Shown here piece after piece: positions 17,197 to 63,438 of a stretch of 64,000 bases of DNA (positions within the stretch are counted from its first letter, which is position 1; every line of letters starts with the position of its first letter). Both the position numbers and the translations under genes were made by a program. Location of the stretch: assembly GCA_030390025.1 (NCBI GenBank), contig CM059432.1, positions 15,564,001 to 15,628,000 on the forward strand. The letters are read 5' to 3'. The notes below the pieces were generated by a model. That model saw only the letters and a program-made list of their open reading frames with translations, searched no databases and was not told the DNA's origin. This stretch comes from Squalus acanthias. Taxonomy: Eukaryota.

Positions 17197-20100
17197 TAAT
17201 AGGAACATAGGAACAAGAGTAGGCCATTCAGCCCCTCGAGCCTGTTCCACCATTCAATGAGATCATGGTTGATCTGCGACCTAACTCCATATACCCTCCA
17301 AGGCCAATATATCCTTTCTAAGGTGTGGTGCCCAGAACTGCTCACAGTACTCCAGATGTGGTCTAACCAGGGTTTTGTATAGTTGCAGCATGACATCTAA
17401 CTCCTTGTATTCTAATCCTCTAGATATAAAGGCCAGCATTCCATTAGCCTTTTTAATTATTTTCTGTACCTGTTCATGGCATTTTAATGATCTATGTACC
17501 TGGACCCACAAGTCTCTTTGGACCTCCACTGTTTTTAGCTTTTCACCATTTAGAAAGTACCCTGTTCTATCCTTTTTAGGTCCAAAGTGATCTCACATTT
17601 GCTTACATTGAAATCCATTTGCCCATTCACTTAATCTGTCGATATCCCTTTGTAATTTTATGCTTTCATCTACACTGCCTACAATACCGCCTATCTTTGT
17701 GTCATCGGCAAACTTGGATATATGACTTTCTATGCCATTATGTAAGTCGTTAATAAATACTGTGAATAGTTGAGGCCCCAACACAGATCCCTGCGGGACA
17801 CCACTAGTCACATCCTGCCAATTTGAGTGCTTACCCATTATCCCTACTCTCTGCCTCCTGCCGTTCAGCCAATTTCCTAACCAGGTCAATAATTTGCCCT
17901 CAATTTCAACTAATTTCACCTTAGTTAATCATCTCTTATGTGGGACTTTATCAAATGCCTTCTGGAAGACCATATAAATAACATCCATAGACATTCCCCT
18001 GTCCACTACTTTAGTCACCTCTTCAAAAAATGTAATCAGGTTTGTCAGGCATGACCTACCTTTTACAAATCCATGCTGGCTCTCTCTAATCAACTAAAAA
18101 TTTTTGAGGTGTTCAGTCACCCTATCCTTAATTATAGACTCTAGCAATTTCCCGACAACAGATGCTAGGCTAACTGGCCTATAATCTCTTGGTTTCCCCC
18201 TCTCGCCATTTTTAAATAGCAGAGTGACACGCGCAATTTTCCAACCTAAAGGAACGGTTCCTGAATCGGGAGAACTTTGGAAGATTATAGTTAGGGCATC
18301 TGCAATGTGCTCACCTACTTCCTTTAAAACCCTGGGATGGAAGCCATCTGGTCCTGGGGATTTGTCACTAATGCCATTATTTTCTTCATTACTGTTACTT
18401 CACTTACATTAATTTTATTGAGTCCCTGTCCCCGATTCAATATTAGTTTCCTTGGGATTTCCGGCATGCTATCCTCTTTTTCGACTGTAAATACTGACGC
18501 AAAGTAATTATTCAACATGTCCACCATTTTCTTCTTATTATTGACAATATCATCGCTTTCAGTTTTTAAGGGGCCAACATTGCTCCTGACTTCCCTCTTT
18601 TTCCTAATGTAATTGTAAAAATTCTTCATAATGATTTTGATGTCCCTTTGCAAGTTTCTTTTCATACTCCCTTTTTGTAGCTCTTACTATCTGTTTTGTG
18701 ACCCTTTGCTGTTCTTTGTATCTTTCCTATTCGTCAGGATCTGTGCTATTTTTTGCATTTTTGTATGCTTTTTCTTTTAGTTTTATGCTGTCCCTTACCT
18801 CTTTAATCGTCCATGGCTGTTTTTTTTGGCAAGTAGCGCTCTTGCCCCTCAGGGGTAGAAACTGGTTCTTTATCACATTAAATTCTTTTTTGAACATCTC
18901 CCACTGATCTTCTGTCATTTTACCCATTAACAGATTTGCCCAGTTTACTGTGGACAGTCTCTGCCTCATCCCGTTGAAGTCGCCCTTACCTAAATCTAGA
19001 ATCTTAGTAGCTGTTTTGCGCTTCTCCCTTTCAAATGCTACGTTGAACTCGATCATGTTATGATCGCTATTGGATAAATGTTCACGCACAGTTAGGCTGT
19101 TAACTAAATCTGGCTCATTACTCATTACTAAATCTAATATGGCTTTCCCCCTTGATGCCTGTAGAACATATTGTTGTAGAAAACTATCTCAGATGCACTC
19201 AAGAAATTCACTACCTTTCTGACAGGTGCTAGTCTGCTTATCTCAATCTATATGAAAGTTAAAATCCCCCATTAAAACCACACTGCCTTTGCTACACGCT
19301 TGTATAATCTATGCATTTATACAATCTAGCACTTCACAGCTGCTACCAGGGGGCCTATACAACTCCCACTACAGTCTTACATCCTTTCCTATTTCTTAAT
19401 TCTACCCATAAAGTCTCCACTGCCTGCTTACCTCTCTTTATATCCTCTCTTATCATTGAAGTGATTTCATCCTTAATCACGAAGGCTACTCCTTCCCCTC
19501 TGCCATTTTCCATATATTTCCTGTAGACCTTATAACCTGGCATACTTAGTTCCCAGTCCTGACTGTCTACCATGTCATACCCTCCAATTTCGAATTCGTG
19601 CCTGCAGTTCATTCAGTTTATTCCTTATACGCCATGTGTTTGTATAAAGAACGCTTATTTGGGCCACACACCCTAGCCTGTCCTTCAGCTCTAAAGTTTT
19701 ACTCACACGTTTCTTATTTCTCTCTCCTGGTTTCATCACTTTACATCTTTTAGTTTTCCCTTTACTTTTACAATTTCTGACTGTTATTCTACTCTCTTCC
19801 TTTTCGTTTGTTTTTGATCTACTATTTGTACTACAATTTCCACCTGAGCCCTCCCCCCCATTTACTAGTTTAAAGTCCTTGTGACCGTCCTATTTATCCT
19901 TTCCGCTAGGACCCTGATTCCAGACCGGTTCAGGTGGAGCCCATTCCAAAGGTACAGTTCCTTCCTGTCCCAATACTGGTGCCAGTGCTCCATGAAATGG
20001 AACCCCTCTTTCCCAGACCATTCCTTTAGCCACGTGTTCACTTCCCTAATCAGCTTATCCCTACGCCAATTTGTGCGTGGCTCAGGTAATAATCCAGAGA

Positions 20101-20348
20101 TTATAACCCTTGAGGTCCTGTTCTTTAACTTAGCTCCTAGTTCCTGGTACTCCCCAAACAGGACCTCTTGCCTACTCTTCCCTATGTTGTTGGTCCCAAC
20201 ATGGACCACAACGACTGGATCCTCCCCCTCCCTCTCCAAAATCCTTTCAAGCCTGTTCGAGATGTCCCTTACCCTGGCAACATACCATGTGGGACTCTCG
20301 ATCTTGCTCACAAAGGATGCAATCTGTCCCCCTAATTATAGAATCCCC
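17197..20348 (-). mobile_element. Degraded long CR1: partial ORF1 esterase, APE and RT, with an internal 3' deletion
   Basis: ORF1 19865-20311 has SGNH-esterase motifs (VVVHVGTNN, GLHLN). ORF2 fragments EHLSNSDHNMI, SGVPQGSVLGP, KFADD, RPHLEYC. Confidence 0.92.
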
Positions 20349-20519: not shown

Positions 20520-23270
20520 AGAACATAAGAACATAAGAAATAGGAGCAGGAGTAGGCCAATCGGCCCCTCGAGCCTGCTCCGCCATTCAATAAGATCATG
20601 GCTGATCTGATCCTAACCGCCAATCTACTATCTATCACAGAACCATCTCCTGCATCTAACAGAATTGCACACACAAAATAGGAGCAGAATCAGGCTACAC
20701 GGTCCCTGGGCCCGCTCCACTACCCACAGAGCCATGACCGATCCGAACCTAGACTCATGTCCAAATTCCTGCCCGCTCCCCGTAACCCTTAATGCCCTTT
20801 ACTTCTAGGAAACTGTCTATTTCTGTTTTAAATTTATTTAATGATGTAGCTTCTACAGCTTTTTGTGGCAGCATATTCCATGGACCTACCACCCTCTGAG
20901 TGAAGTAGTTCCTCCTCATCTCAGTTTTGAAAGAGCAGCCCCTTATTCTAAGACTATGTCCCCTAGTTCTAGTCTCACCCGTCATCGGGAACATCCTCCC
21001 CGCATCCACCTGATCCAACCCCTTCACAATCTTATATGTTTCAATAAGATCGCCTCTCATTCTTCTGAACTCCAATGAGTAGAGTCCCAATCTACCCAAC
21101 CTCTCCTCATATGACCACCCCCTCATCCCCGGGATTAATCGAGTGAACCTTTTTTGCACTGCCTCGAGAGCAAGGATGTCTTTCCTTAAGTAAGGACACC
21201 AAAACTGTATGCAGTATTCCAGGTGCGGTCTCACCAATACCTTGTACAACTGAAGCAATACCTCCCTATTTTTATATTCTATCCCCCTAGCAATGAAAGC
21301 CAACATTCCATTTGCCTTCTTAATCACTTGCTGCACCTGCATACTAACCTTTTGAGTTTCGTGCACCAGGACCCCCAGATCCCTTTGCACTTCAGTACTC
21401 TCCAGTTTCTTGCCATTAAGATAATAAATTGCTCTAGGATTTTTCCTGCCAAAGTGCATCACCTCACACTTTCCAGTGTTGTATTCCATCTGCCAAATCT
21501 CTGCCCACTTACTTAGCCTGTCTATGTCCCCTTGCAGGTTTTTTATGTCCTCCTCACTCACTACTTTCCCTCCCATCTTTGTATCATCTGCAAATTTTGA
21601 TATGTTACACTTGGTCCCTTCCTCCAAATCGTTAATATAGATTGTAAAGAGTTGGGGACCCAGCACTGACCCCTGTGGAACACCACTAGTTACTGATTGC
21701 CAGTCTGAGAATGAACCATTTATCCCAACTCTTTGCTTTCTGTTAGATAGCCAATCCTCTATCCATGCCAGAATATTACCCCCAATCCCGTGATTTTTTA
21801 CCTTAAGCAATAATCTTTTGTGTGGCACCTTGTCAAATGCCTTTTGGAAGTCTAAATACACTACGTCCACTGGTTCCCCTTTATCCACTCTATATGTTAC
21901 TTCCTCAAAGAACTCCAGCAAATTTGTCAAACATGACTTCCCCTTCGTAAAACCATGCTGACTTTGTCCTATTAAATTATGATTATCCAAATGTCCTGTT
22001 ACTGTTTCCTTAATAATGGACTCCAAAATTTTACCTACCACAGATGGTTAGGCTAACCGGTCTATAGTTACCAGCCTTCTGTCTACTGCCCTTTTTAAAT
22101 AAGGGTGTTACATTAGCAGTTTTCCAGTCTGCCAGGACCTTAGCGGAATCCAGGGAGTTTTGAAAAATTATTACCAATGCATCTACAATCCCTACCGCCA
22201 CTTCCTTCAAGACTCTAGGATGTAAGCCATCAGGTCCAGGTGATTTATCCGCCTTGAGTCCCATTATTTTACCGAGTACCACTTCCTTAGTGATTTTGAT
22301 CGTGTTTAGCTCCTCTCCCCCTATAGCCCCCTGTTTGTCCAGTGTTGGGATATTCTTAGTGTCCTCTACTGTAAAGACTGATACAAAATATTCATTCAGT
22401 GTTTTTGCCATCTCCATATTTCCCACCATTAATTTCCCGGTCTCATCCTCTAAGGGACCAACATTTACTTTAGCCACCCTTTTTCTTTTTATATAACTAT
22501 AAAAACTCTTACTATCTGTTTTTATATTTTTTGCTAATTTACTTTCATAATCTATCTTCCCTTTCTTAATCAATCTTTTTGTTATTTTTTGCTGCCTTTT
22601 AAAGTTTTCCCAATCCTCTGTCCTCCCACTAGATTTCGCTACCTTATATGCCCTTGTTTTTAGTCGAATACTATCCTTAATTTCTTTACTTAGCCACGGA
22701 TGACTGTCCTTTCTTTTACACCCTTTTCTTTTCAGTGGAATATATTTTTTTTGGAAGTTGTAAAATAACTCCTTGAATGTACATCACTGATCATGTGTCG
22801 TCTTACCCTTTAATCTATTTTCCCAATCCACTCTACTCAATTCCACTCGCATACCTTCATAGTCTCCTTTATTCAAGCTTAGCACGCTTGTTTGAGATCC
22901 AACCTTCTCACCCTCTAATTGAATATGGAACTCAACCATGTTATGGTCACTCATTCCAAGGGGATCCTTTACTAGGACATTTTTAATTAATCCTGTCTCG
23001 TTACACAGGACCAGATCTAAGGTTGCTTGCCCCCTGGTCGGTTCAGTTACATACTGCTCAAGAAACCCATCCCTAATACACTCAATGAACTCATCCTCAA
23101 GGCAGCCCTGCCCCATTTGATTTGTCCAATTAATATGATAGTTAAAATCCCCCATAATTATAGATGTTCCCTTATTACATGCCTCAACTATTTCCTGATT
23201 GATACTCCGTCCAACAGAGTTGCAACTGTTCGGAGGCCTATAGACTACGCCAACTAGTGTTTTTTCCCCT
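20520..23270 (-). mobile_element. Young 5'-truncated CR1 with a duplicated 3' tail module
   Basis: Long ORF2 pieces 22784-23155, 22031-22573 and 20755-22041, with terminal (TTCTTATG)n repeats near 20520. Confidence 0.95.
20755..22041 (-). CDS. CR1 ORF2 reverse transcriptase domain and C-terminus (428-aa open stretch of a frameshifted ORF2)
   Basis: QHGF..SCLTNL, YLDFQKAFDKVPH, SGVPQGSVLGP, KFADD, RPHLEYC. Confidence 0.85.
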   Translation of the reverse strand: MVGKILESIIKETVTGHLDNHNLIGQSQHGFTKGKSCLTNLLEFFEEVTYRVDKGEPVDVVYLDFQKAFDKVPHKRLLLKVKNHGIGGNILAWIEDWLSNRKQRVGINGSFSDWQSVTSGVPQGSVLGPQLFTIYINDLEEGTKCNISKFADDTKMGGKVVSEEDIKNLQGDIDRLSKWAEIWQMEYNTGKCEVMHFGRKNPRAIYYLNGKKLESTEVQRDLGVLVHETQKVSMQVQQVIKKANGMLAFIARGIEYKNREVLLQLYKVLVRPHLEYCIQFWCPYLRKDILALEAVQKRFTRLIPGMRGWSYEERLGRLGLYSLEFRRMRGDLIETYKIVKGLDQVDAGRMFPMTGETRTRGHSLRIRGCSFKTEMRRNYFTQRVVGPWNMLPQKAVEATSLNKFKTEIDSFLEVKGIKGYGERAGIWT

Positions 23271-23384
23271 TCTCACACTGCAGCTTCACATATAATACAT
23301 TAGGAGCATAATGCATTGCCGACAAAATATCTCTAATTTTCAGACCTTGGTTAATATTCATCCTCTCAATCCAGAGACCCCCAC

Positions 23385-26300
23385 GACGGGAGGGTTTGCT
23401 AGTGCAGGTGGGGAGGGTTTAAACTAGCTTGGCAGGGGGATGGGAACCTAAGTATAGAGTCAATAGGGAGGGAAGAAAAACTGGAATTGGTAAACAAAAA
23501 CGTAGAAAGTAAATTGGAAGGACAGAGGAATCAAGGGCTAGACAGTAGTCAACAAAGAGGTTTGCTTGTACTAAATGGTATATACTTCAATGCAAGGAGT
23601 ATAGCGAACAAGGCAGATGAGCTGAGGTCACAGGTAGATACTTGGGACTATGATATTATAGCTATTACAGAAAGGTGGCTGAAAGAGGGGCAGGTATGGC
23701 AGCTCAACATTCCTGGTTACAGGACTGTCAGACGGGATAGAAAGGGAGGTAAAAAGGGAGGGGGGGTGGGGTACTGATTAAAGAAACTATTACAGCTGTG
23801 AGGAGGGATGATATATTGGAGGGATCATCAAACGAGGCCATATGGGTCGAATTGAAAAACAAAAAAGGAGCGATCACACTGCTGGGAGTGTACTACAGAC
23901 CCCCAAACAGTAAGAGGGAGATAGAAGAACAAATATGTAGACAAATTTCTGAGAAGTGCAAAAACTATAGGGCAGTTACAGTAGGGGATTTCAACTACCC
24001 CAATATTAACTGGGATAAAATTAGTGTGAAGGGTATAGAAGGTGCGGAATTCCTAAAATGCATCCAGGAGAACTTTTTTAGCCAGTATGTAGCAAGCCCA
24101 ACAAGGGAGGGGTGGTTCTGGACTTAGTTTTAGGGAATGAAGCTGGGCAGGTAGAAGGCATATCAGTGGGGGAGCATTTTGGTGCTAGTGACCATAATTC
24201 TGTTAGATTTAAGGTAGTTATGGAAAAGGACAAGGATAGACCAGGAATAAAAATTCTAAATTGGGGAAAAGCAAATTTTGCTAAGCTCAGAGGGGATTTA
24301 GCCATAGTGGACTGGAAACAGCTACTTGAAGGTAAATCAGTGTCAGAGCAGTGGGAGGCATTCAAGGACAAGATCCGGAGGGTTCAGACCAAACATGTGC
24401 CCTTAAAGAAAAAAGGTGGAACTAACAAATCTAGAGCCCCTGGATGTCTAGAGACATACAGGGTAGGATAAAGAAAAAAAGGGAGAGGTATGACAGATAC
24501 AGAGAGCTAAATACTCCAGAATCTTTAGAGGAGTACAGAAAGTGCAGGGGTGCAATTAAAAATGATATTAGGAAAGCAAAGAGAGAGCATGAAAAATTCT
24601 TGGCAAGTAAAATCAAGGAAAACCCAAAGATGTTTTATAAATATATTAAGAGTAAGAGGATAACTAAAGAAAGGGTAGGGCCTATTAGAGATCATGAGGG
24701 TAATCTGTGTGTGGAGGCGGGAGACGTCGGTAGGGTTCTTAATGAATACTTTGCGTCTGTTTTCACAAAGGAGAGGGGCGAAGCAGACATTGCTATCGGG
24801 GGGAGGAGTGTGAAATATTAGATGAAATAAACATAGTGAGAGAGGAAGTATTAAGGGGTTTAGCAGCTTTAAAAGTGGATAAATCCCCAGGCCCAGATGA
24901 AATGTATCCCAGGCTGTTAAGCGAAGCAAAAGAGGAAATAGCAGAGGCCCTGACCATCATTTTTCAATCCTCTCTGGCTTCAGGTGTGGTGTCGGAGGAC
25001 TGGAGGACTGCTAATGTTTAAAAAGGGAGAAAAGGATAGACCGAGTAATAACAGGCCAGTCAGCCTAACCTCGGTGGTGGGAAAATTATTGGAAAGAATT
25101 CTGAAGGACAGGATAAATCTTCACTTAGAAAGACACGGATTAATCAAGGATAGTCAGCACGGATTTGTTAAGGGAAGATCGTGTCTGACAAACTTGATTG
25201 AATTTTTTGAGGAGGTAACAAGGAGGGTAGATGAGGGTAGTGCGTTTGATGTAGTGTATATGGACCTTAGCAAGGCTTTTGATAAGGTTCCACATGGCAG
25301 ACTGGTCACGAAGTTAAAAGCCCATGGGATTCAGGGAAAAGTGTCAAGTTGGATTCAAAACTGGCTCGGAGACAGGAAGCAGAGGGTAATGGTTGATGGG
25401 TGTTTTTGTGACTGGAAGGCTGTTTCCAGTGGGGTTCCGCAGGGCTCAGTACTAGGTCCCTTGCTTTTTGTGGTACTGTATATATCAGTGATCTAGACTT
25501 GAATATAGGGGGTATGATTAAGAAGTTTGCAGATGATACTAAAATCGGCTGTGTGGTTGATACTGAAGAAGGAAGCTGTAGATTGCAGGAAGATATCAAT
25601 AAATTGGTCAGGTGGGCAGAACAGTGGCAAATGGAATTCAATCCGGAGAAGTGTGAGGTAATGCATTTGGGGAGGGCTAACAAGGAAAGGGAATACACAT
25701 TAAATGGTAGGACACTGAATAGTGTAGAGGAACAAAGGGACCTTGGAGTGCATGTCCACAGATCCCTGAAGGTAGCAGGCCAAGTAGATAAGGTGGTTAA
25801 GAAGGCATACGGAATGCTTGCCTTTATTAGCCGTGGCATAGAATACAAGAGCAGGGGGGTTATGCTTCAACTGTATAAAACACTAGTTAGGCCTCAGCTA
25901 AAGTACTGCGTGCAGTTCTGGTCACCACGTTACAGGAAAGATGTGATTGCACTAGAGAGGGTACAGAGGAGATTTACAAGGATGTTGCCGGGAGTAGAGA
26001 ATCTTAGCTATGAGGAAAGACTGGATAGGCTGGGTCTGTTTTCCTTGGAACAGAGGAGGCTGAGGGGAGACCTTATTGAGGTGTATAAAAGTATGAGGGG
26101 CCTAGATAAAGTGGATAGAAAGGACCTATTTCCCTTAACAGAGGGGTCAAAAACCAGTGGGCACAGATTTAAAGTAATTGGTGGAAGGTTTAGAGGGGAT
26201 TTGAGGGGAAATTTCTTCACCCAGAGGGTTGTGGGGGTCTGGAACTCACTGCCTGAAAGGGTGGTAGAGGCAGGAACCCTAACCACATTTAAAAAGTACT

Positions 26301-26446
26301 TGGATGTGCACTTGGGATGCTCTAACCTGCAGGGCTACGGACCAAGAGCTGGGAAGTGGGATTAGGCTGGATAGCTCTTTGTTGACCGGCACGGACACGA
26401 TGGGCCGAAATGGCCTCCTTCCGTGCTGTAACTAACTTTCTATGAT
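23385..26446 (+). mobile_element. CR1 LINE: last codons of ORF1, complete but frameshifted ORF2, 3' tail
   Basis: ..GEGLN* followed by YFNARS, YYRPP, GDFN, SDHN, DKSPGPD, KAFDKVPH, FADD. Tail GGGCCGAAATGGCC..TTTCTATG. Confidence 0.95.
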
Positions 26447-27194: not shown

Positions 27195-27615
27195 CTTGAT
27201 TGGCACCTCATCCACCACCTTAAACATTCACTCCGGCGTACTGTGGCTGCAGTGTGTACCATCTGCAAGATGCACTGCAGCAACTCGCCAAGGCTTCTTC
27301 GGCAGCACCTCCCAAACCCGCGACCTCTTCCACCTAGAAGGACAAGGGCAGCAGGCGCGTGGGAACACCACCACCTCCAAGTTCCCCTCCAAGTCACTCA
27401 CCATCCTGACTTGGAAGTGCATCGCTGATCCTTCATCGTTGCTGGGTCAAAATCCTGGAACTCCCTCCCTAACAGCACTGTGGGAGTATCTTCACCACAC
27501 GGACTGCAGCGGTTCAAGAAGGCGGCTCACCACCACCTTCTCGAGGGCAACTAGGGATGGGCAATAAATACTGGCCTTGCCAGCGATGCCCACATCCCAG
27601 GGACGAATAAAAAAT
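27195..27615 (+). mobile_element. Family-B LINE 3' end
   Basis: High similarity to 32990-33445. Confidence 0.85.
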
Positions 27616-27942: not shown

Positions 27943-28162
27943 GGTCATGATGCGGAGATGCCGGTGTTGGACTGGGGTGGACAAAAATGAGAAGTCGCAC
28001 AACACCAGGTTATAGTCCAACAGTTTTATTTGAAATCACAAGCTTTCGGAGCTTACGTGGCCCCTTCCTCAGGTGAAGGAAGGGGCCACGTAAGCTCCGA
28101 AAGCTTGTGATTTCAAATAAAACTGTTGGACTATAACCTGGTGTTGTGCGACTTCTCATTTT
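27943..28162. mobile_element. Fold-back Penelope family 1 insertion with 13-bp TSD and a hammerhead on the - strand
   Basis: Perfect inverted arms of about 85 bp. TGTATAGTTTAGT at 27930-27942 and 28163-28175. The - strand reads TCAC-CTGAGGA-A-GGGGC..GCTCC-GAAA-GCTT-GTGA. Confidence 0.9.
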
Positions 28163-29004
28163 TGTATAGTTTAGTACAGCGAAACCTCCATCAAATAAAA
28201 AAATTGTTGCGCATATTTAATTCCACCCGCCACCCCCACCCCCGTTTGCTAGGGAGAAACAGAAATGCTATTCGAGTAATAATGGATGTATATTTGTATT
28301 TGCTCGGGCTTTCCAAACTGTAAGACTTGAGAGAGTCACAACTACTCATTTATATTCTTTTTAAAAGATAATTAGTCACAGATAACAATAGTTTGAGCAA
28401 ACGCTGTTCAGAATACCTAAATGTCCTTTTCGACACTGATTCCATCACAGTCCTGTGCAATGAATAGGTTCTGAGAATTACATTTTTACAAATGAATCTG
28501 TTTCCATTGTCTAATGGTTGATTTGTGAAGTGGTGTCTATCAGTACATTGTTATTTTAAACAAGACACTGCAGTGTATCAGACGCCTTCACCAGTCTACA
28601 GCTGGATAGTCTACATTTTTAACCTCGTCTCCAGGTCTTTAGATTAGTTAACCAGATGTCCTGGTTTTGTGTATAGGTTTATAAAGAGTCTCTTAGTGCA
28701 GCGAGGATTATTCATGCTGGGGGTTTTACTTCATTTCAGTCTTAGTGCTGGACTGAAATTCTTCCATGGCATCTTGAATGCCTGTCTTGACTCTTCCTTG
28801 CAGGGTTCAATGAAAATGTCTAGCCCAGATTGCCATTTAAAATCTGCGAGGGAGCTCCCTTGTGGCCAAATGCACATGTGCTCCTTAAGAGTACAGAATA
28901 GGAAGGTCTCAGGTTCAATTTCAAGTCTGTGCTGAGTTAGCTGATCTCACCCGGGGCAGCTTCTATGGAGCTACAGTTGGTCCCTTGCTACCTCCCTCCT
29001 TTTA

Positions 29005-32521: not shown

Positions 32522-32989
32522 TAAGTGTGGGCACCGGCCCCTGGCATTTATCTTGCTGAAAGTGGCTGCCTTAACCAACGGCACCTTCAGAAACCACAGT
32601 ACTACGGTGCCAGTGGTTCCACAACTACCGGGGCCATTCGTATTCTGGAGTATATATGTTAAGGAGATTTGTTCTTCTCTTGTAGGCTGAATCCTGTGTT
32701 ACAAAACCTGCTGGTACTTAACTCTTCATCTATGATTTATAAAGATTGCAACAGTAAAATTACAACAGTGACTGCACTTCAAAAGCACGTCATTGGCTGT
32801 GAAGCACGTTGTGACGGCCTGGGGCCGTGAAAGGCGCTATATAAATGCAAGGTTTTTTTTATGATACAAGGAAGATCATCCAAGAAGTGAGGCGTAATGG
32901 GGATATGAGATGTATGTAGAATAATTCTGTTAGTAGGCAACCTCTTCAGCTCTTTTCCCTCGAATAGATTTCCCTAATTTAAGTTGAAT

Positions 32990-33445
32990 GAAGGACAAAG
33001 CAGCCCGCTTGATTGGCACCCCATCCACCACCTTAAACATTCACTCCCTCCACCACCAGCGTACCGTGGCTGCAGTGTGTACCATCTACAAGATGCACTG
33101 CAGCAACTCGCCAAGGCTTCTTCAGCAGCACCTCCCGAACCCGCGACCTCTACCACCTAGAAGGACAAGGGCAGCAGGCGGTTGGGAACACCACCACCTC
33201 CAAGTTCCCCTCCAAGTCACACACCATCCTGACTTAGAAGCATATCGCCATTCCTTCATCGTCGCTGGGTCAAAATCCTGGAACTCCCTCCCTAACAGCA
33301 CTCTGGGAGTACCTTCACCACATGGACTGCAGCGGTTCAAGAAGGCGGCTCACCACCACCACCTTCTCGAGAGCAATTAGGGATGGGCAATAAATGCTGG
33401 CCTTGCCAGCGACGCCCGCATCCCATAAACGAATATTTAAAAAAA
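32990..33445 (+). mobile_element. Family-B LINE 3' end
   Basis: DKAARLIGTPSTTLNIHSLHH..KSWNSLP plus tail. Confidence 0.88.
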
Positions 33446-34519
33446 CCATAGAATTGCAGTAAAATGGTAAAATGGCAGGCTGTTGAACATTGTGTGGCTG
33501 TAACATCTGCTGATGTCTGTATTGCTGAGCTAGGTTCACCCTCTCAATCCCGAGGTTCATGTCTGGAAATGCACGGGTCTGAATACATTTCAATTCAGAG
33601 TTGAAAGGATTCATTAGTTTTGCTGACGTTCAAAAAAATAAATCAACCAAAGGTGAGCATTCAGCACGTCTGTTTCTTTATTAAAATAATTCTCCTCTCG
33701 GCTGATGCAGGTAGAAAGCCGAGACCCTCTGAAACCCTGTGCCCTTTGCCTCAGGAAATTTCTCTTGAGCTGTGCTAATCTAGTTCACACAGCAAAACCT
33801 TCCATGTCTGAGTGTCTAGGTTTAGGAATCTAACTGCTTCTGTGCCCATGGGTTTTTAATTTTAGGTATGAGATTCAACTTATACTTCTTTCCCCATTCT
33901 TTTCAAGTCAACTTTAGAACTACGAACAAGGGAAGGGAAGCCACAGACAGTCAATTCTGTTCAAACAGACATAAAGGGCAGGTCGGGAGGTGACTGCGCT
34001 GGTGACAGGTTTTTTTTTGCTGTCATTGCTATGTTTCCCCCCCCCCCCTCCCCCCTGTTTGTGAAGCAACAGACCGCAGTATATAAGTGAATAAATCTAA
34101 ATGTGGCTCTGAGCATAAATGGGATATAATGCTCCGATTTAAACAGCAGAGCTGTTTCTCCCCTGCCCTGGGACTCCCAATACTGTGGAATCTGCCCCAT
34201 TTACATTCCAGGGTGGAATCCACAGCATCAGCATCAACAGATAAGCAACTGCACAGACGCAAGATTATCTACATCGGCGGTTACAGAACATGAGAAAAGT
34301 CAGGGATGAGAAAAGGTGCTTGAAAGTTAAAATTCGCAACTTTAGCTTCGGGCCAGAAAATCTTCCACCGATGGCTGGGGAAGGTCTGTACAGATGAACA
34401 GTGGAACAATCTTATCACTGTCCGGGCCAACTGCACGCATACTGTGTTCTTAACCAGAAGAAAAACTGCAGCTGCCATGGGAAGCCTTGTTGCTCATATT
34501 TTGTATATTTAGCATTAAC

Positions 34520-35060
34520 AGCCAAGGCACAAGTCAGGAGTGTGATGGAATACTCTCCACTTGCCTGGATGAGTGCAGCTACAACAACACTCAAGAAGTT
34601 CCACATCATCCAGGACAAAGCAGCCTGCATGATCAGCACTCCACCCACTACCTTAAACATTCACTCCCTCCACCACCAGGTTACAGTGGCTGCAGTGTGT
34701 ACAATCTACAAGATGCACTGCAGCAACTCGCCGAGGCTTCTTCGGCAGCACCTCCCGAACCCGCGACCTCTACCACCTAGAAGGACAAGGGCAGCAGGCG
34801 CATGGGAACACCACCACCTCCAAGTTCCCCTCCAAGTCACACACCATCCTGACTTAGAAGTATATCGCCGATCCTTCATCGTCACTGGGTCAAAATCCTG
34901 GAACTCCCTCCCTAACAACACTATGGGAGTACCTTCACCACACGGACTGCAGCGGTTCAAGAAGGTGGCGCACCACCACCTTCTCAAGGGCAATTAGGGA
35001 TGGGCAATAAATGCTGGCCTTGCCAGCGACGCCCACATCCCGTGAATGAATAAAACAAAA
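34520..35060 (+). mobile_element. Family-B LINE 3' end
   Basis: KAQVRSVMEYSPLAW..HHHLLKGN* plus tail. Confidence 0.88.
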
Positions 35061-39593: not shown

Positions 39594-42491
39594 TCCCTTC
39601 TCTCTCTTAGGCAGACCCTCGGAACCAAGGATTACTTGCTTCCACATTAAAAATGAGTTCTCAGGTGACTGATGAGTCCAATGCAGGACCTACAGTCTCT
39701 GTCACAGATGGGGCAGACGGTGGTTGAAGGGGCAGGTGGGTGGGGTGCTTGGGTTGACGTGCGCTCCTTGAGCTTGGCTTCCGCTTGCTCCCGGCGAAGA
39801 GACTCGAGGTTTTCGGCGCCTCCCCGGATGCTTCTCCTCCACTTTGTGCGGTCTTGGGCCAGGGATTCCCAGGTGTCAGTGGGGATGTTGCACTTTTTCA
39901 AGGAGGATTTGAGGGTGTCCTTGAAGCATTTCCTCTGCCCACCTGGGGCTCTCTTGTAGTGTCGGAACTCCGAGTAGAGCGCTTGTTTTGGGAGTCTCGT
40001 ATCGGGCATGCGGATGATGTGGCCCGTCCATCGGAGCTGATCGAGCGTGGTCAAAGCTTCGATGCTGGGGATGTTGGCCTGAGCGAGAACACTGACGTTG
40101 GTGCGCCTATCCTGCCAATGGATTGGCAGGATCTTGAGGAGGTAGCGTTGGTGGTACCTCTCCAGTGCTTTGAGGTGCCTGCTGTACATGGTCCATGTCT
40201 CTGAGGCATATAGCAGAGCGGGTATCACTGCTGCTCTGTAGACCATGAGCTTAGTGCCGGGTTTGAGGTCCTGGTCTTTAAACACTCTCTTCCTTAGGCG
40301 ACCGAAGGCTGCACTGGCACACTGAAGACGGTGTTGGATTGCCCTTGTTGACAGTAGGCTCCCAAGGCCTCATCGTGGATTTTGATAATCGGGGGACAGT
40401 ACTGTGTGGCAGGGGCAGGTTGATAGAGGACCTTTGTCTTACGGATGTTTAGTGTAAGGCCCATGCTCTTGTACGCTTCGGTGAAGGTGCTGACGATGGT
40501 TTGGAGTGCGACCTCCGAGTGAGCGCAGACGCAAGCGTCGTCTGCATACTGTAATTCGACGACAGAGGATGGGACGACCTTGGATCTGGACTGGAGGCAA
40601 CGGAGGTTGAACAGTTTCCCATTTGTTCTGTAAATTAGCTCCACTCCAGCAGGGAGCTTACTGAGGGTGAGATGGAGCATTGCAGCAAGGAAGATCGAGA
40701 AGAGCGTTGGTGCGGTGACACAGCCTTGCTTGACCCCGGTTCGTACGTGAATTGGGTCTGTGGTGGAACCGTTGGTCAGGATCACAGCTTGCATCTGAAG
40801 CAGGCGGAGGATGGTGACAAACTTTTGAGGGCAGCCGAATTTGAGGAGGACACTCCATAATCCCTCACGGTTGACAGTGTCGAAGGCCTTTGTGAGATCA
40901 AAGAAGGCCATGTACAGCGGTTGGTGCTGTTCCCTGCATTTCTCTTGCAATTGACGTGCGGTGAAGATCATGTCCATTAGTGGGCGGAATCCGCATTGCG
41001 ACTCTGGGAGGAGTTCTTCGGCCACTGGGAGAAGGCGATTGAGGAGGATTCTTGCGATAACTTTCCCTGTGGCAGACAGCAGGGAAACTCCTCTGTAATT
41101 ACCGCAATCGGACTTGTCACCTTTCTTGAAGATGGTCACAATTACGGTGTCTCTGAGATCCCCTGGCATGCTCTCCTCCTTCCAGATAAGAGAGATGAGT
41201 TCATGAATTCGCACCAGTAGTGCTTCTCCGCCATGCTTTAGTGCCTCGGCGGGAATTCCATCTGCTCCTGAGGCCTTGTTGTTCTTCAGTTGTCGGATGG
41301 CCTTTTCAACCTCATGCCGGGCTGGGGTTGTGCTGAGATGGTGGCGGGTAGCATGCTGCGGGATGGAGTTGAGGACACTCGCGTCGAAGACAGAGTCGCG
41401 GTTAAGGAGATCTTCGAAGTGCTCCTTCCAGCGGGCACTGACTGCCTCTCTGTCCTTGATGAGTACCTCTCTGTTCTTGGCCCGCAGTGGGGTAGGACCA
41501 TGGGTGCTTGGGCCGTAGATGGTCTTGACTGCGCTAAAGAATCCACGCACGTCGTGGTTGTCGGCTAGCTGCTGGATCTCCTGCGCTTTCTCCACCCACC
41601 ATCTGTTCTTTAGGTCGCGAGTTTTTTGTTGGACCTCGGCCTTCAGGCGTCTGTAGAGCTGCTTTCTTGCTCTCAAGTTCTGTTGCTGTTTCCAGATCAG
41701 GAATGCCTTGCGCTTGCGGCTTATTAGCTCCTGAATCTCCTGGTCGTTCTCGTCGAACCAGTCTTGGTGTTTCCTGGTCGAGTGACCAAGCGTCTCTTCA
41801 CAGGTGCTGATTATGGAGGCCTTGAGTGCAGACCAGGCGCTGTGGGCACTCTGTGTCTCTGCATCAGGTTGTTTGTGAGGCGCAGGCTGAATAGGGCTTT
41901 CTTAGCGGGGTCTTTGAGTGCTCCAGCGTTAATTTTCCTGCGGCATTGTTTCTGTTGCCGCTGCTGTTTTGTGGCTATGTTGATGGAGATGACAGAGCGG
42001 ATTAGGCGGTGGTCTGTCCAGCAGTCGTCAGCTCCTGTCATGGCGCGGGTGATGCGGACATCCTTGTGGTCCCTCGCTCGGAAGATGACGTAATCCAGCA
42101 GATGCCAGTGCTTGGAACGAGGGTATTGCCATGAAGCCTTGTACTTGTCTCTCTGACAGAACAAGGTGTTGGTTATGACAAGGCCATGTTCTAAGCATTT
42201 CGACAGGAGGAGGGTACCGTTGGAGTTGGCTTTCCCTACCCCCTCTCTGCCGATCACACCTCCCCAGAGGTCTGTGTCCTTTCCAACTCTGGCGTTAAAG
42301 TCGCCAAGGAGGATCAGCTTGTCGCCCATTGGGACTCGGGACAGGGATTGTTCGAGGCTGGAGTAGAATTCCTCTTTGGTCTCGTCTGTGGCTTCCAATG
42401 TTGGGGCGTACGCACTGATGACCGTAGCGCACTGGTTCCAGGCTAGGGTGAGCCGAAGAGTCATGAGGCGCTCGTTTATACCGCTAGGAGA
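39594..42491 (-). mobile_element. 5'-truncated RTE-clade LINE (APE, RT, C-terminal C2H2-like motif), frameshifted
   Basis: SAYAPT..LGDFNARVG..TDH, ESQCGFR, FDLTKAFD, GVKQGC, QYADD, QLRWTGH, CPICDRDC..GLISHLRTH. TSD GCATCAC at 39587-39593 and 42492-42498. Confidence 0.93.
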
Positions 42492-47079: not shown

Positions 47080-47530
47080 GCCAAAGACAAGATCAACCAC
47101 CGCCCCATGACATTCGATGGCATTACCATCAGCGAATCCCCCACCATCAACATCCTTGGGGGGGTCACCATTGACCAGAAGCTTAACTGCACTGTGGCAA
47201 CTTGCCAAGGCTTCTTCGACAGCACCTCCCAAACCTGCAACCTCTACCACCTTAAACGTTAAGGCAGCAGGCGCATGGGAACACCACCACCTCCAAGTTC
47301 CCCTCTAAGTCACACAACATCCTGACTTGGAAATATATCGGCGTTCCTTCATCGTCACTGGGTCAAAATCCTGGAACCCCCCTCCCTACCAGAATTGTGG
47401 GAATACCTTCAGCACACGGACTGCAACGGTTCAATCAGGCAGCTCACCACCACCTTCTCGAGGGCAATTAGGGATGGGCAATAAATGCTGGCCTTGCCAG
47501 CGACGCCCACATCCCAGGAACTAATAAAAA
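47080..47530 (+). mobile_element. Family-B LINE 3' fragment with internal deletion
   Basis: ESPTINILG..DQKLN joined to the terminal segment and tail. Confidence 0.8.
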
Positions 47531-48383: not shown

Positions 48384-49041
48384 GGGATAGAGTTTCCGCT
48401 TTGGGCACAATCGGCGATCCGGGCGCAACTTGCGCTCAAAATTGCGCTAGTTTTAAGAAGTGTTTTTTTCCCCTCAAGTTTCCGCTCAAGCTCATTTGCA
48501 TATCGTCGAACGTTAAAAAAATGTTGCTTTAAAAAATATTGCTTGATGTATTTAAGGGCGATAACTCGGTGCAGTTTGATTAATACAGCGGAAAATGGGT
48601 TTACCACAAAAAATAAGCATTTTAAATCACAGTGTCAATCCACCACCTGTGAGTAACCCGATTTAAAATTTCCGAAAATGAGGTACACTAATCGGTTTCT
48701 CAGCAAATCAAAAGAAAATTATATTTTGAAATGTGCCTATTAGTGTCCTTGCGCCCAAATAAACCATTTTAATTTTGGGAGCCTCCCGAAGGCCCGCAAA
48801 CGGGGCGCAATTAGTCGAAACTCCCAATGGTGATTAATTCATCCTGGGGGCATGGCCAGGTTTGTGGGAGGGGCCGGCTTCTAGCGCGATGTTTTTTAAA
48901 CTAGTGCAAAAGATCGCAGAAAGTCGATTTGCGCTGAACGCAATTTGCGCTTAAAATGCTGCGATCTTTTCCGCCGGTTACGCCGATTTTGGCCGAATTA
49001 CGGTGGAAAAGGCCAGTGCAACCAAGCGGAAACTCTACACC
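48384..49041. mobile_element. MITE with 3-bp TSD (Harbinger-type)
   Basis: TIR GGGATAGAGTTTCCGCTT / AAGCGGAAACTCTACACC and TSD TAT. Related to 59302-60353. Confidence 0.85.
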
Positions 49042-54622: not shown

Positions 54623-56299
54623 TTTATTTGTACATGTGTGTGCGGACCCCACAAAGCACCACAAACCCGTCTCCACACGCCTTCCCTGGGGTTTCTGGAC
54701 AAAGATGAATTTGAAAATATTACTTTTGTTTTCAGTTAAATAACCCGATTTTTTTGTTCGTTGGCCACATTATATGAAGTAAATCCGATGTAAAATTTTC
54801 AAATATGTTGCGGGGGGAAATGTTATCTTCCAACTCGAAAATAAATCAGCAGGACTTTTTTTTAAAGTTTCCCTCAAATATAATAATACAACATGATTGT
54901 ATTTTCCAATAGTTAGTTGTGCTGTTTTTCTGCAGTGTCATTTTTGCTCGGCCCCTTGATGGACATCTCCCCGGTGGGACCTGCAACGGTCAGTCCCACT
55001 CTGTGCGGCCAGAGGAGGCCCGTTTAGACAAGCTTTCCTCGGCATATTCCTGTTCCTTCCTCAGTAATTCGATCCCTTTATTGCCTTTTGGATTCTTGCT
55101 GTCGAGGAAGAATTAAGAACATTTCATTCATCTAAGAAAGTAGCAGAGATCCGGTATCTTTACCTCCCCCCCCAGCCTAAAAAAAATGCCTAGTGCTGTC
55201 AGTGTGTGTGTGTGTCTGATTTTAACACAATCGAAAGTCGTTCACTTTTTGTATTCTTTACAATCCCGTTGCTCACACTGATTTTAAACTAGTCGGCATC
55301 GTCAGCACAAACTTCTGTTCCAAGTTACTAACATTTGCGATGCTATACACCTACTCAACAACAGACTGCCAATCCTCGTCGTTCCACTTTATCACATCTT
55401 CCCACGGGCACATTGCTCTCCAAACCTGATCGGTAGGTGGCCAGAGCATTTACTTTCCAAATACTGCCCTGCAGTTTGTTTGCTTAGGTTGCCTTAAGTT
55501 TACAGAAGAGGACCAAGCTTTAAAAGCTTGCCTTCCAAGCCATGGTTTATTTATGCTAAATAAGTTACTTCATTTTATAAATGTAAGCTCGACTTTTCTT
55601 CACGCAAGCACTAAAGAGAATTGTGGGCTGGCAGGTGAAAAGGACTAGCAGTTGTGTCTTTGTTTTGGCCTTTTAGAACTGACATTTAGATGCGCCAACA
55701 GGCTATGATTCAAATGGTGCAAAACGGTGTTGAATCTTGACTGGCTGCTTCCAATCTCAGTCAGGCTGTTTGGAGAGGGTACAGAGCAAATACGCTGTGT
55801 TTTCCCACAGACGGGAACTGAAATTGTTGGCTGGTTAGAGAGCAGTGTCGGTACACGCCTGGGAGCAGGTCTTAGAATATTGAGGCGCAGCTCATCGTAA
55901 TCAGTGTGAATGCACAAGGAATACCATCAGCAAAGCACAATGCCCCATTTCTTTGGTCCATGGCGCACTCTGTCTCAGGACAGCCCGGAACAATGTCTCA
56001 CGGGTATTGGGCACGAATCAGGTTATGGGGAATTAGATTTGCGTGTTGGCATCCCAGCACAGTTTCTCCAAGTCTTTTAGTACTTCCAGCAATCAACCAT
56101 TGTTACATTCCTGAGACATCTGGCCTCATGACAGCTGCATTAAACTGCACCTTGCTGTTATGGCACAAGTTTTTTTTTAAAAAAGTGCTACAAACCTTTA
56201 TTATTTCTAATCCATGTAGAGTGGAGTGAATAAGATGCAAGAAAGCGATCATCATTGCAGAGAACCATATGAAGACTTTTGCATGGGCTTGAACAGCTG

Positions 56300-61386: not shown

Positions 61387-63438
61387 TCACAAACAGCAGA
61401 GGACCCAGCACCGACCCCTGTGGCGCACCGACCCCTGTGGCACACCGCTGGTAACTGGTCTCCAGTCCGAAAATTTTCCATCCAGCACCACCCTCTGCCT
61501 TCTATGAGATAGCCAGTTACTTATCCAATCGGCCAAATTTCCCTCTATCCCACAACTCCTTACTTTCTTCATGAGCCGACCATGGTGAACCTTATCAAAC
61601 GCCTTACTAAAATCCATGTATATGACATCAACTGCTCTACCTTCATCTACACACTTAGTTACCTCCTCAAAGAATTCAATCAAATTTGTTAGGCAAGACT
61701 TACCCTTCACGAATCCGTGTTGACTATCCCTGATTAAGTTGCCTCTTTCCAAATGTTCATAAATCCTATCCCTCAGGACCTTTTCCATTATCTTACCAAC
61801 CACCGAAGTAAGTCTAACCGGCCTATAATTACCAGGGTCATTCCTATTTCCTTTCTTGAAGAGAGGAACAACATTCGCCACTCTCCAGTCCTCTGGCACC
61901 ATCCCCGTGGACAGTGAGGACCCAAAGATCAAAGCCAAAGGCTCTGCAATCTCCTCCCTTGCCTCCCAAAGAATCCTAGGATATATCCCATCTGGCCCAG
62001 GGGACTTATCGACCCTCAGGTTCTTCAAAATTGCTAAAACATCTTCCCTCAGAACATCTACCTCCTCCAGCCTATCCACCTTTATCACACTCTCATCCTC
62101 AAAAACATGGCCCCTCTCCTCGGTGAACACTGACGAAAAGTATTCATTCATCACCTCTCCTATCTCTTCTGACTCCATGCACAAGTTCCCACTACTGTCC
62201 TTGACCGGCCCTACCCTCACCCTGGTCATTCTTTTATTTCTCACATAAGAGTAAAAAGCCTTGGGGTTTTTCTTGATCCGACCCGCCAAGGACTTCTCAT
62301 GCCCCCTCCTAGCTCTCCTAAGCTCTTTTTTTAGCTCATTCCTTGCTACCTTGTACCCCTCAATCGACCCAACTGAACCTTGTTTTCTCATCCTTACATA
62401 CGCTTCCTTTTTCCTCTTGACTAGACATTCAACCTCTTTTGTGAACCATGGTTCTCTCACTTGGCCATTTCCTCCCTGCCTGACAGGGACATACCTATCA
62501 AGGACACACAGTAATTGCTCCATGAAAAAGCTCCACTTTTCGTTTGTGCCTTTCCCTGATAGTTTCTGTTCCCATCTTATGCTCCCTAATTCTTGCCTAA
62601 TCGCATCATAATTACCCCTCCCCCAATTATAAACCCTGCCCTGCCGTATGGCCCTATCCCTCTCCATTGCAATAGTGAAAGTCACCGAATTGTGGTCGCT
62701 ATCTCCAAAGTGCTCTCCCACATACAAATCAAACACTTGGCCCGGTTCATTACCCAGTACCAAATCCAATGTGGCCCCACCTCTTGTCGGCCTATCCACA
62801 TATTGTGTCAGGAAACCCTCCTGCACACACTGTGCAAAAACTATCCCATCCGAACTGTTTGACCTATAAAGGTTCCAATCAATATTTGGAAAGTTGAAGT
62901 CACCCATGACAACTACTCTGTGACCTCCACACCTATTCATAATCTGCTTTGCAATTTCTTCCTCCACATCTCTATTACTATTTGGGGGCCTGTAGAAAAC
63001 TCCTAACAACGTGACCGCTCCTTTCCTATTTCTAACTTCAGCCCATATTACCTCAGACGGCAGATCCCCCTCGAACTGCCTTTCTGCCGCTGTTAAACTA
63101 TCCTTGATTAACAATGCTACTCCTCCACCTTTTTTACCACCTTCCCTACTCTTACTGAAACATCTATACCCCGGAACTTCCAACAACCATTCCTGTCCCT
63201 GTTCTAACCATGTCTCCGTAATGGCCACCACATCGTAGTCCCAAGTACCAATCCACGCTCCAAGTTCTCCTACCTTATTCCGGATGCTCCTTGCATTGAA
63301 GTAGACACACTTCAAGCCATCTTCCTGTCTGCTGGTACATTCCTGCGACCTTGATACCCTCCTCAGTACCTCCCTACACTCACCACTGGCTCCTGGACTA
63401 CAGCCCTTTTTCCCATCCCCCTGACAAATTAGTTTAAA
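61387..63438 (-). CDS. CR1 ORF2 (APE endonuclease plus N-terminal part of RT), no ATG before the APE domain
   Basis: YFNARS, ITETW, FYRPP, GDFN, SDHN, DKSPGPD, NYRPV, DFSKAFD, SGVPQGS. The start shown in the ORF track at 63549 is TTG. Confidence 0.85.
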   Translation of the reverse strand, partial: FKLICQGDGKKGCSPGASGECREVLRRVSRSQECTSRQEDGLKCVYFNARSIRNKVGELGAWIGTWDYDVVAITETWLEQGQEWLLEVPGYRCFSKSREGGKKGGGVALLIKDSLTAAERQFEGDLPSEVIWAEVRNRKGAVTLLGVFYRPPNSNRDVEEEIAKQIMNRCGGHRVVVMGDFNFPNIDWNLYRSNSSDGIVFAQCVQEGFLTQYVDRPTRGGATLDLVLGNEPGQVFDLYVGEHFGDSDHNSVTFTIAMERDRAIRQGRVYNWGRGNYDAIRQELGSIRWEQKLSGKGTNEKWSFFMEQLLCVLDRYVPVRQGGNGQVREPWFTKEVECLVKRKKEAYVRMRKQGSVGSIEGYKVARNELKKELRRARRGHEKSLAGRIKKNPKAFYSYVRNKRMTRVRVGPVKDSSGNLCMESEEIGEVMNEYFSSVFTEERGHVFEDESVIKVDRLEEVDVLREDVLAILKNLRVDKSPGPDGIYPRILWEAREEIAEPLALIFGSSLSTGMVPEDWRVANVVPLFKKGNRNDPGNYRPVRLTSVVGKIMEKVLRDRIYEHLERGNLIRDSQHGFVKGKSCLTNLIEFFEEVTKCVDEGRAVDVIYMDFSKAFDKVHHGRLMKKVRSCGIEGNLADWISNWLSHRRQRVVLDGKFSDWRPVTSGVPQGSVRHRGRCWVLCCL

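Follow-up and report, generated by a model that had tools for sequence, protein, structure and literature searches.

A slippery heptamer next to the ORF1 stop is conserved among vertebrate CR1 elements and suggests a programmed -1 frameshift into ORF2

Viruses are known to use programmed -1 ribosomal frameshifting at U_UUA_AAC. This heptamer fits the form X_XXY_YYZ, and the usual signal combines such a heptamer with an RNA structure 5-9 nucleotides (nt) downstream (PMC3542737). Together with G_GGA_AAC and A_AAA_AAC it is named among the heptamers most prone to shifting on mammalian ribosomes, and a minority of stimulators begin 12-15 nt downstream, the characterised ones involving trans-acting factors (PMC5009743). 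In the virus of the porcine reproductive and respiratory syndrome (PRRSV), the nsp2TF motif CCCANCUCC sits 3' of the shift site at a distance of 11 nt (PMC5009743), and in the reporters of Yu et al. a G-quadruplex of four G3 tracts downstream of UUUAAAC gave ~7% shifting, with an optimum spacer of 6-8 nt (PMC3919603). For the Dictyostelium elements TRE5-A and TRE3-A a -1 frameshift is said to be required for open reading frame 2 (ORF2; PMC5911963); the idea is therefore not new for elements without long terminal repeats (non-LTR elements). Here we examine a CR1-type long interspersed nuclear element (LINE) at 23388-26446 (+) of a 64,000-nt stretch of the Squalus acanthias genome (assembly GCA_030390025.1, contig CM059432.1, positions 15,564,001 to 15,628,000 of the forward strand; hereafter the window), in which the last codons of ORF1 form this heptamer directly before the stop and ORF2 lies in the -1 frame.

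In birds the principal interspersed repeat is CR1, with 11.8% of the chicken model chromosomes (PMC11835228), and it is abundant in the source genome as well. The literature searched, as far as its text was available, does not state how CR1 ORF2 is translated. The CR1 papers in that search (the founding ones lay outside it) describe two ORFs and, in the parts available, do not mention programmed frameshifting; nor was frameshifting in CR1 found by a full-text literature search or by terms in the available text of PMC5009743, PMC11835228, PMC3905857, PMC4120745, PMC8665684, PMC2734521 and PMC4316615. Haas 1997, Kajikawa 1997, Kapitonov and Jurka 2003 or Repbase entries may hold an earlier note of an overlap or a frameshift. 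An esterase ORF1 is described in vertebrate groups only (Metcalfe and Casane 2014).

At the 23388 copy, the + strand at 23409-23427 reads GGG GAG GGT TTA AAC TAG. The heptamer T_TTA_AAC (23418-23424, +), of X_XXY_YYZ form, is in phase with the ORF1 end ...GGEGLN*, and the ORF1 stop TAG (23425-23427, +) follows it directly, so the in-phase junction claimed from the letters in an earlier note is borne out by both the strand read and the translation. The -1 frame is uninterrupted from stop to stop over 23403-23777, is translated as FKLAWQGDGNLSIES...LNGIYFNARSIANKADEL...AITERW and includes LNGIYFNARS. That it lacks an ATG through 23777, as the same note had stated, is likewise correct: five ATGs lie between 23440 and 23650, all in the ORF1 frame and open for 2-9 codons, and the next endonuclease piece (23753-24127) is Met-free too. 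The linker that leads in the -1 frame from the heptamer up to the endonuclease's first motif has 57 codons (23418-23588, +), with 0 stops and 0 ATG. The stop at 23775-23777 reflects decay of this copy, family contigs carrying an extra base near 23767-23769. Readthrough of the ORF1 stop was rejected because ORF2 lies at -1 to that stop, with 8 ORF1-frame stops ahead of the endonuclease.

The same arrangement recurs in the window. All three CR1 families found there have T_TTA_AAC in ORF1 phase and ORF2 at -1: the cassette of the second family (the 63.4-kb copy) reads TTTAAAC TAA TTTGTCA GGGGG (63417-63438, -) with 189 ORF1 esterase codons upstream, and that of the third (the 19.9-kb copy) reads TTTAAAC TAG TAAATGG GGGGG (19853-19874, -) after the ORF1 end RTLN*. 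The ORF2 proteins of the 23388 and 63.4-kb copies are 54% identical, and their fourfold-degenerate third positions agree at 38/118 (32%); against the 19.9-kb copy the 23388 copy agrees at 26/93 (28%). Silent sites are thus saturated between families, yet the cassette is retained, with TTTAAACTA identical in all three families and CAGGGGGATGGG in two of them, which argues that the junction is under selection. On these comparisons the junction is evidently real and conserved at the nucleotide level beyond what the protein needs; selection acted on active families, not on the dead 23388 copy. The suggestion in the earlier note that the signal is selected is thereby supported, all the more as the cassette recurs elsewhere (below). 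Its statement that heptamer, stop and CAGGGGGATGGG are kept between the 23388 and 63.4-kb copies stands for the heptamer and CAGGGGGATGGG but not for the stop, which is TAG in one and TAA in the other; the linkers do differ as it said, the Asn of xNARS being reached 57 codons from the heptamer in the first and 47 in the second. By itself the 10-mer TTTAAACTAG is a weak marker, with 9 window matches at no more than one mismatch versus 5.1 expected; its exact occurrences at 48895-48904 and 55283-55292 (+) lie outside CR1, have no G run and are chance matches. The composite TTTAAACTAR-N7-GGGGG, which was defined only after the junctions had been seen, occurs 3 times in the window, each time where the ORF1 of a CR1 ends, and in none of 100 shuffles.

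Within the 23388 family the junction was followed in contigs from three public runs aligned on 23360-23900; these contigs are of uncertain kind, and one raw-read run (X21) gave 2 reads only. Among the variants listed (40 of 85), none falls at 23418-23426 and no indel precedes 23767. At the stop position TAG/TAA exchange is common, TAA being the commoner letter. Taken singly, none of the 26 listed common substitutions in 23427-23742 generates an ATG or a stop in frame. The family check of frame offset and missing ATG that the earlier note had proposed therefore came out in its favour among the variants listed, which include no indel between heptamer and endonuclease and no single substitution creating an ATG. 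Other linkers diverge at 23444-23449. The summed contig depth, which is not a copy number, peaks over the junction.

Junctions outside the window were collected by a metagenome scan in which loci were picked on motifs inside the esterase, without regard to the heptamer. Of the 41 loci that it yielded, 19 break off or are decayed ahead of the ORF1 end, another 11 belong to distant esterases, and 11 have a CR1-type ORF1 end. Ten of these last junctions carry TTTAAAC and one (L002) GTTAAAC; with the window included, T_TTA_AAC is found in 13/14 DNA junctions, L002 being the exception with G_TTA_AAC. The next codon is TAG in 10 of the 11 outside junctions and AAG in the decayed L026, while the codon before TTA varies yet ends in T (CAT, GCT, TCT and TGT outside, GGT and ACT in the window). 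GGGGG stands at +11 to +15 after the heptamer in 9/10 outside junctions with enough DNA (at +8 to +12 in L002), and in 12/13 when the window families are included. The -1 frame is stop-free from heptamer to endonuclease in 10/11 of the junctions whose DNA extends that far, over 35-95 codons, with 1 stop in the decayed L003; the other two frames of those linkers hold 1-12 stops each, and those of the 23388 copy 8 (ORF1 frame) and 3. Upstream of the heptamer, the -1 frame is closed within 1-5 codons in 9/12 junctions, and an upstream ATG occurs in none. The nearest named protein marks L001 as sturgeon-like and nine of the loci as bird-like.

Some relatives depart from this pattern in ways worth recording. 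In L002 the variant G_TTA_AAC TAG (680-689) is followed by ORF2 at -1; in equine arteritis virus the shift site is listed as beginning with G_UU(A) (PMC5009743). Three database proteins (P0052, P0064 and P0102) come from copies in which an indel directly precedes the heptamer, and they enter the -1 frame (FKLIWQGDG, FKLDRLGGG and FKLTQQGHG); they show the same ORF1/ORF2 frame relation in other families. No relative was found in viral contigs scanned with two ORF1 alignments and one endonuclease piece, a plasmid scan gave no match, and a scan of prokaryote genomes gave 4 weak matches that were not used.

From the observed anatomy, phase, -1 offset, lack of an ATG in the 23388 family and conservation across families we infer, with a probability of roughly three in four, a programmed -1 frameshift on U_UUA_AAC that would yield an ORF1p-ORF2p fusion. 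The junctions have a phased heptamer, a -1 ORF open from the shift site and conservation of the heptamer at the nucleotide level, and they share with the arterivirus type a linear motif at a fixed spacing of ~11-15 nt. In an active family, ribosomes would read ORF1 up to its last codons, UUA AAC. The majority would then meet the adjacent UAG or UAA and release ORF1p, whereas a minority would slip one base back, tRNA-Leu moving from UUA to UUU and tRNA-Asn from AAC to AAA. The slipped ribosomes would read CUA in place of the stop and go on to the endonuclease and reverse transcriptase across a linker that is unconstrained. The predicted product is an ORF1p-linker-APE-RT (RT, reverse transcriptase) fusion of ~1,290 residues (ORF1 ~310 and ORF2 ~980 codons), and tandem slippage would give the junction peptide ...EGLN-LAWQGDG, not FKLAWQ. 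Slippage during transcription was discounted by inference, since a long homopolymer is lacking at the site.

The C-terminal tails of ORF1 proteins bear on the heptamer through the residues that it permits. Leu-Asn (LN) is terminal in 87/159 distinct tails of esterases without the DxxHP motif, from named sharks, rays, coelacanth, frogs, turtles, a lizard, a snake, a bird, a sturgeon and a mormyrid fish. If the codon ahead of TTA has to end in T, the residues E, K, M, Q and W should be barred before LN. One of them precedes LN in just 1/87 distinct tails; in a set of 77 tails they occur there in 1/77, versus 39/77 one position earlier and 30/77 at the position before that. Other tails, from a more distant group, have GN or KN. 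In the GN tails (n=17), where GN is terminal, the preceding residue is Q or K in 13/17, and none is incompatible with a codon ending in G; in the KN tails (n=10), where KN is terminal or stands 11-13 residues short of the terminus, the preceding residue is S, R, T or A in 10/10. These residues would fit G_GGA_AAC and A_AAA_AAC respectively, and the switch of residue before LN, GN and KN is what exchange among U_UUA_AAC, G_GGA_AAC and A_AAA_AAC predicts. In a tree of the esterase core (tail excluded, FastTree, midpoint root), LN fills one large clade and recurs in a distant group where LN, GN, KN and EN alternate. A distant ORF1 sub-branch (P0199, P0270, P0265, P0169, P0217, P0155 and P0269) ends in GFLG, FFR, FFH or MFF, ends which could reflect U-rich heptamers such as U_UUU_UUA, the shift site of human immunodeficiency virus type 1 (HIV-1).

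The conserved end in 87/159 tails could also suggest that Leu-Asn is kept at the protein level, together with shared ancestry, and that the heptamer is a by-product. However, Leu is TTA and Asn is AAC in 14/14 DNA junctions despite saturation of silent sites, related elements end in GN, KN or EN, and the ATG-less ORF2 would be left without a route of translation. Moreover, esterases of the DxxHP type, including the solved 4C1B-like type, have a terminal Asn in 2/20 tails, and the esterase fold therefore does not require LN. This explanation is largely refuted already, and we give it the faintest chance of those considered.

Several observations weigh against the frameshift reading: i) Related loci share ancestry, and as the bird-like loci count as one lineage, the DNA evidence amounts to about six lineages, not fourteen cases; ii) Tails are likewise shared by kin, LN being near-universal in one large clade and GN found mostly in another, and 43/159 of the non-DxxHP tails have no terminal Asn; iii) The GN and KN heptamers are read from protein alone, DNA of such elements having been looked for and none found; iv) The 11 more distant esterase loci have neither the heptamer-stop arrangement nor an ORF2 match; v) The 70 nt after the stop, folded for 12 junctions, gave z of -1.3 to +1.5 and no shared stem at 5-9 nt, and a partner strand for the G run, near or far, was no better than for control G runs (11 junctions; pseudoknots were examined solely via pairing of the G run), so that the canonical 3' structure of a -1 frameshift site is lacking at the CR1 junctions; vi) An in-frame ATG precedes the endonuclease in 8/11 linkers, and 4/9 bird-like loci (L004, L007, L008 and L009) have TAG-NN-ATG with its ATG in the ORF2 frame.

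The last point recalls termination-reinitiation, in which ribosomes would restart near the ORF1 stop, at an AUG or AUG-free as in mammalian L1, ORF2p would be a separate protein, and the conserved letters would be the context of stop and restart. In L1 the first ATG of ORF2 can be replaced by any sense codon (PMC1965478, PMC5009743), and an open linker is predicted by reinitiation as well. On the other hand, the codon at the ATG position is not fixed: it is GTG, TCG, TGG or TCC in the five other bird-like loci and TGG, TGT, AAT or AGG elsewhere. Three families (23388, 63.4-kb and L001) have no in-frame ATG before the first endonuclease motif; the 'ATG-less ORF2' of the earlier note thus holds for the family of the 23388 copy but is not general to CR1s. 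The motif UGGGA of a termination upstream ribosome-binding site (TURBS) is missing 30-110 nt upstream in 7/12 junctions (23388 copy excluded) and lies at scattered distances in the rest, and an AUG beside the stop is confined to the 4 bird-like loci above. Reinitiation also leaves unexplained the X_XXY before the Leu-Asn codons and the switch of residue before LN, GN and KN. We therefore regard it as unlikely.

A mixed scheme, in which the frameshift is ancestral and conserved and a linker AUG, in the lineages that have one (some birds), serves as an additional or even the main start, would suit the bird-like loci with TAG-NN-ATG, which keep both heptamer and G run. The ATG is unfixed even among bird-like loci, however, and as a codon at a free position of the linker it may be neutral; the scheme is inapplicable to the 23388 family, which has no ATG there; it is, in our view, very unlikely.

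What is conserved at the junction besides the heptamer is the adjacent stop and a linear run of five Gs at a fixed 10-nt spacer; in the 23388 copy the run occupies 23435-23439 (+; +11 to +15), inside CAGGGGGATGGG (23433-23444), and is a candidate linear stimulator. The ribosome may pause through the adjacent stop together with the linear G run, to which a protein binds or which folds as a weak G-quadruplex, rather than at a stem-loop or pseudoknot; this source of the pause is more weakly inferred than the slip. A shared quadruplex was tried as stimulator and found unsupported, being the predicted minimum fold in just 3/12 junctions. By analogy with factor-dependent sites, a protein-bound G tract is our preferred candidate, as a guess. 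The broader proposal built on it, which we hold tentatively and think doubtful as a whole, is that esterase-ORF1 CR1s from sharks to birds and their more distant relatives use an ancient -1 frameshift, stimulated by the adjacent stop and a protein-bound G5 at +11 (the binder being a host G-tract protein or ORF1p) and not by RNA structure, with the heptamer exchanged among U_UUA_AAC, G_GGA_AAC and A_AAA_AAC by lineage.

The G run is conserved as nucleotides, including the third positions of -1 codons, without a structural partner, and this would also be expected if the cassette were an RNA or DNA signal without a role in decoding: one for protein binding, for packaging, or for a splice through which ORF2 gains an upstream AUG. 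Neither the open linker nor the constant -1 offset nor the constant phase relative to the ORF1 stop would then have an explanation, and no recurrent joint was seen in the family contigs, although such contigs cannot test splicing. We consider such a signal extremely unlikely as the sole account, and return to the frameshift reading below.

The 23388-26446 (+) element is a single CR1-type LINE copy, 5'-truncated and decayed, its frames broken by indels. The CR1 label is based on domain content and named ORF1 homologues. The copy is cut at its 5' end near 23388, where family contigs run on into ORF1 sequence as loose ends, and therefore just the last 12-13 ORF1 codons are left; with the stop they span 23388-23427 (+) and encode ...GFASAGGEGLN*, as seen in translation, family contigs and homologue tails. 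These codons match the tails of homologues and represent the end of an SGNH esterase-type ORF1p. More of ORF1 survives in the window's two sister families, both of which match Lipase_GDSL_2 (SGNH esterase); the ORF1 profile matches PDB 4C1B (E 3e-50), and among named ORF1 proteins those of Mustelus (76%) and Stegostoma (70%) come closest. The decayed ORF2 (23589-26365, +) runs through several frames from APE endonuclease to reverse transcriptase (ORF list and Pfam: Exo_endo_phos_2 at 23753-24124, then RVT_1 at 24954-25493) and is colinear with ORF2 of the 63.4-kb copy. The 3' untranslated region (26366-26446, +) ends in TTTCTATGATG, likely the 3' end of the element, which we take to be a CR1-type 3' tail. 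No convincing target-site duplication was found around the copy. It is an ordinary dead 5'-truncated fossil that makes nothing; its value is that of a second, silent-site-saturated witness of a cassette common to vertebrate CR1s.

Further repeats surround it. The copy of the third CR1 family (17290-20335, -) has a linker of ~80 codons with an open -1 frame and an in-frame ATG ~46 codons in. A 5'-truncated CR1-type copy of a different family (20758-23332, -) lies head to head with the 23388 copy, <100 bases from its 5' end; a twin-priming inversion involving this neighbour was rejected, as it belongs to another family (58% RT identity). Elsewhere, a 535-codon reverse transcriptase frame (40294-41901, -), 22-30% identical to the CR1 ORF2s, presumably belongs to an RTE-type LINE; inspection by eye showed, at ~27984-28165 and after a short repeat-like head, a long inverted repeat that is nearly perfect and has arms of ~85 bases; and 1120-1458, 27195-27515, 32970-33338, 34509-34958 and 47187-47386 are copies of one abundant repeat with coding remnants like those of a LINE tail.

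If the frameshift reading is true, CR1 would differ from L1 in producing its reverse transcriptase fused to ORF1p and in a set, low proportion; under the broader proposal a LINE would have a regulated ORF1p-ORF2p fusion resembling Gag-Pol. The annotation of CR1 ORF2 starts and of 'intact' copies would change. The 22-letter cassette can be tested in a standard reporter, and a new, structure-free type of stimulator is possibly at work.

Among known systems, the ORF1a-1b junction of coronaviruses and arteriviruses and the gag-pol junction of retroviruses have the same X_XXY_YYZ heptamer in the upstream frame, that of CR1 being identical to the U_UUA_AAC of infectious bronchitis virus (IBV; PMC5009743). 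CR1 resembles coronaviruses and retroviruses in having its downstream polymerase ORF at -1 without a start of its own and, if the slip occurs, in making the structural protein in excess over the enzyme. It differs in that it is a LINE, that its stop abuts the heptamer, that no stem or pseudoknot was found 5-9 nt downstream, and that the overlap of frames upstream of the site is often just a few codons. The PRRSV nsp2TF site, which depends on PCBP and nsp1beta, is like CR1 in its short linear motif at a long fixed spacing, the CR1 G run starting at +11; its motif is C-rich and that of CR1 G-rich, PRRSV shifts by -2/-1 at a different site, and the likeness is one of analogy only. Compared with the quadruplex reporters, CR1 has one fixed G5 run at 10 nt. 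Mammalian L1 is also a bicistronic LINE, with an AUG-independent ORF2 (PMC5009743, PMC1965478), but a spacer separates its ORFs, whereas the CR1 frames overlap at a phased slippery heptamer. TRE5-A and TRE3-A are APE-RT LINEs like CR1, with a different ORF1 (51 kDa) and a host of another kingdom (PMC5911963). In composition the element matches CR1 subgroup 7 with ORF1 of type IVB (Metcalfe and Casane 2014), which has the same SGNH esterase ORF1, an APE-RT ORF2 and heavy 5' truncation.

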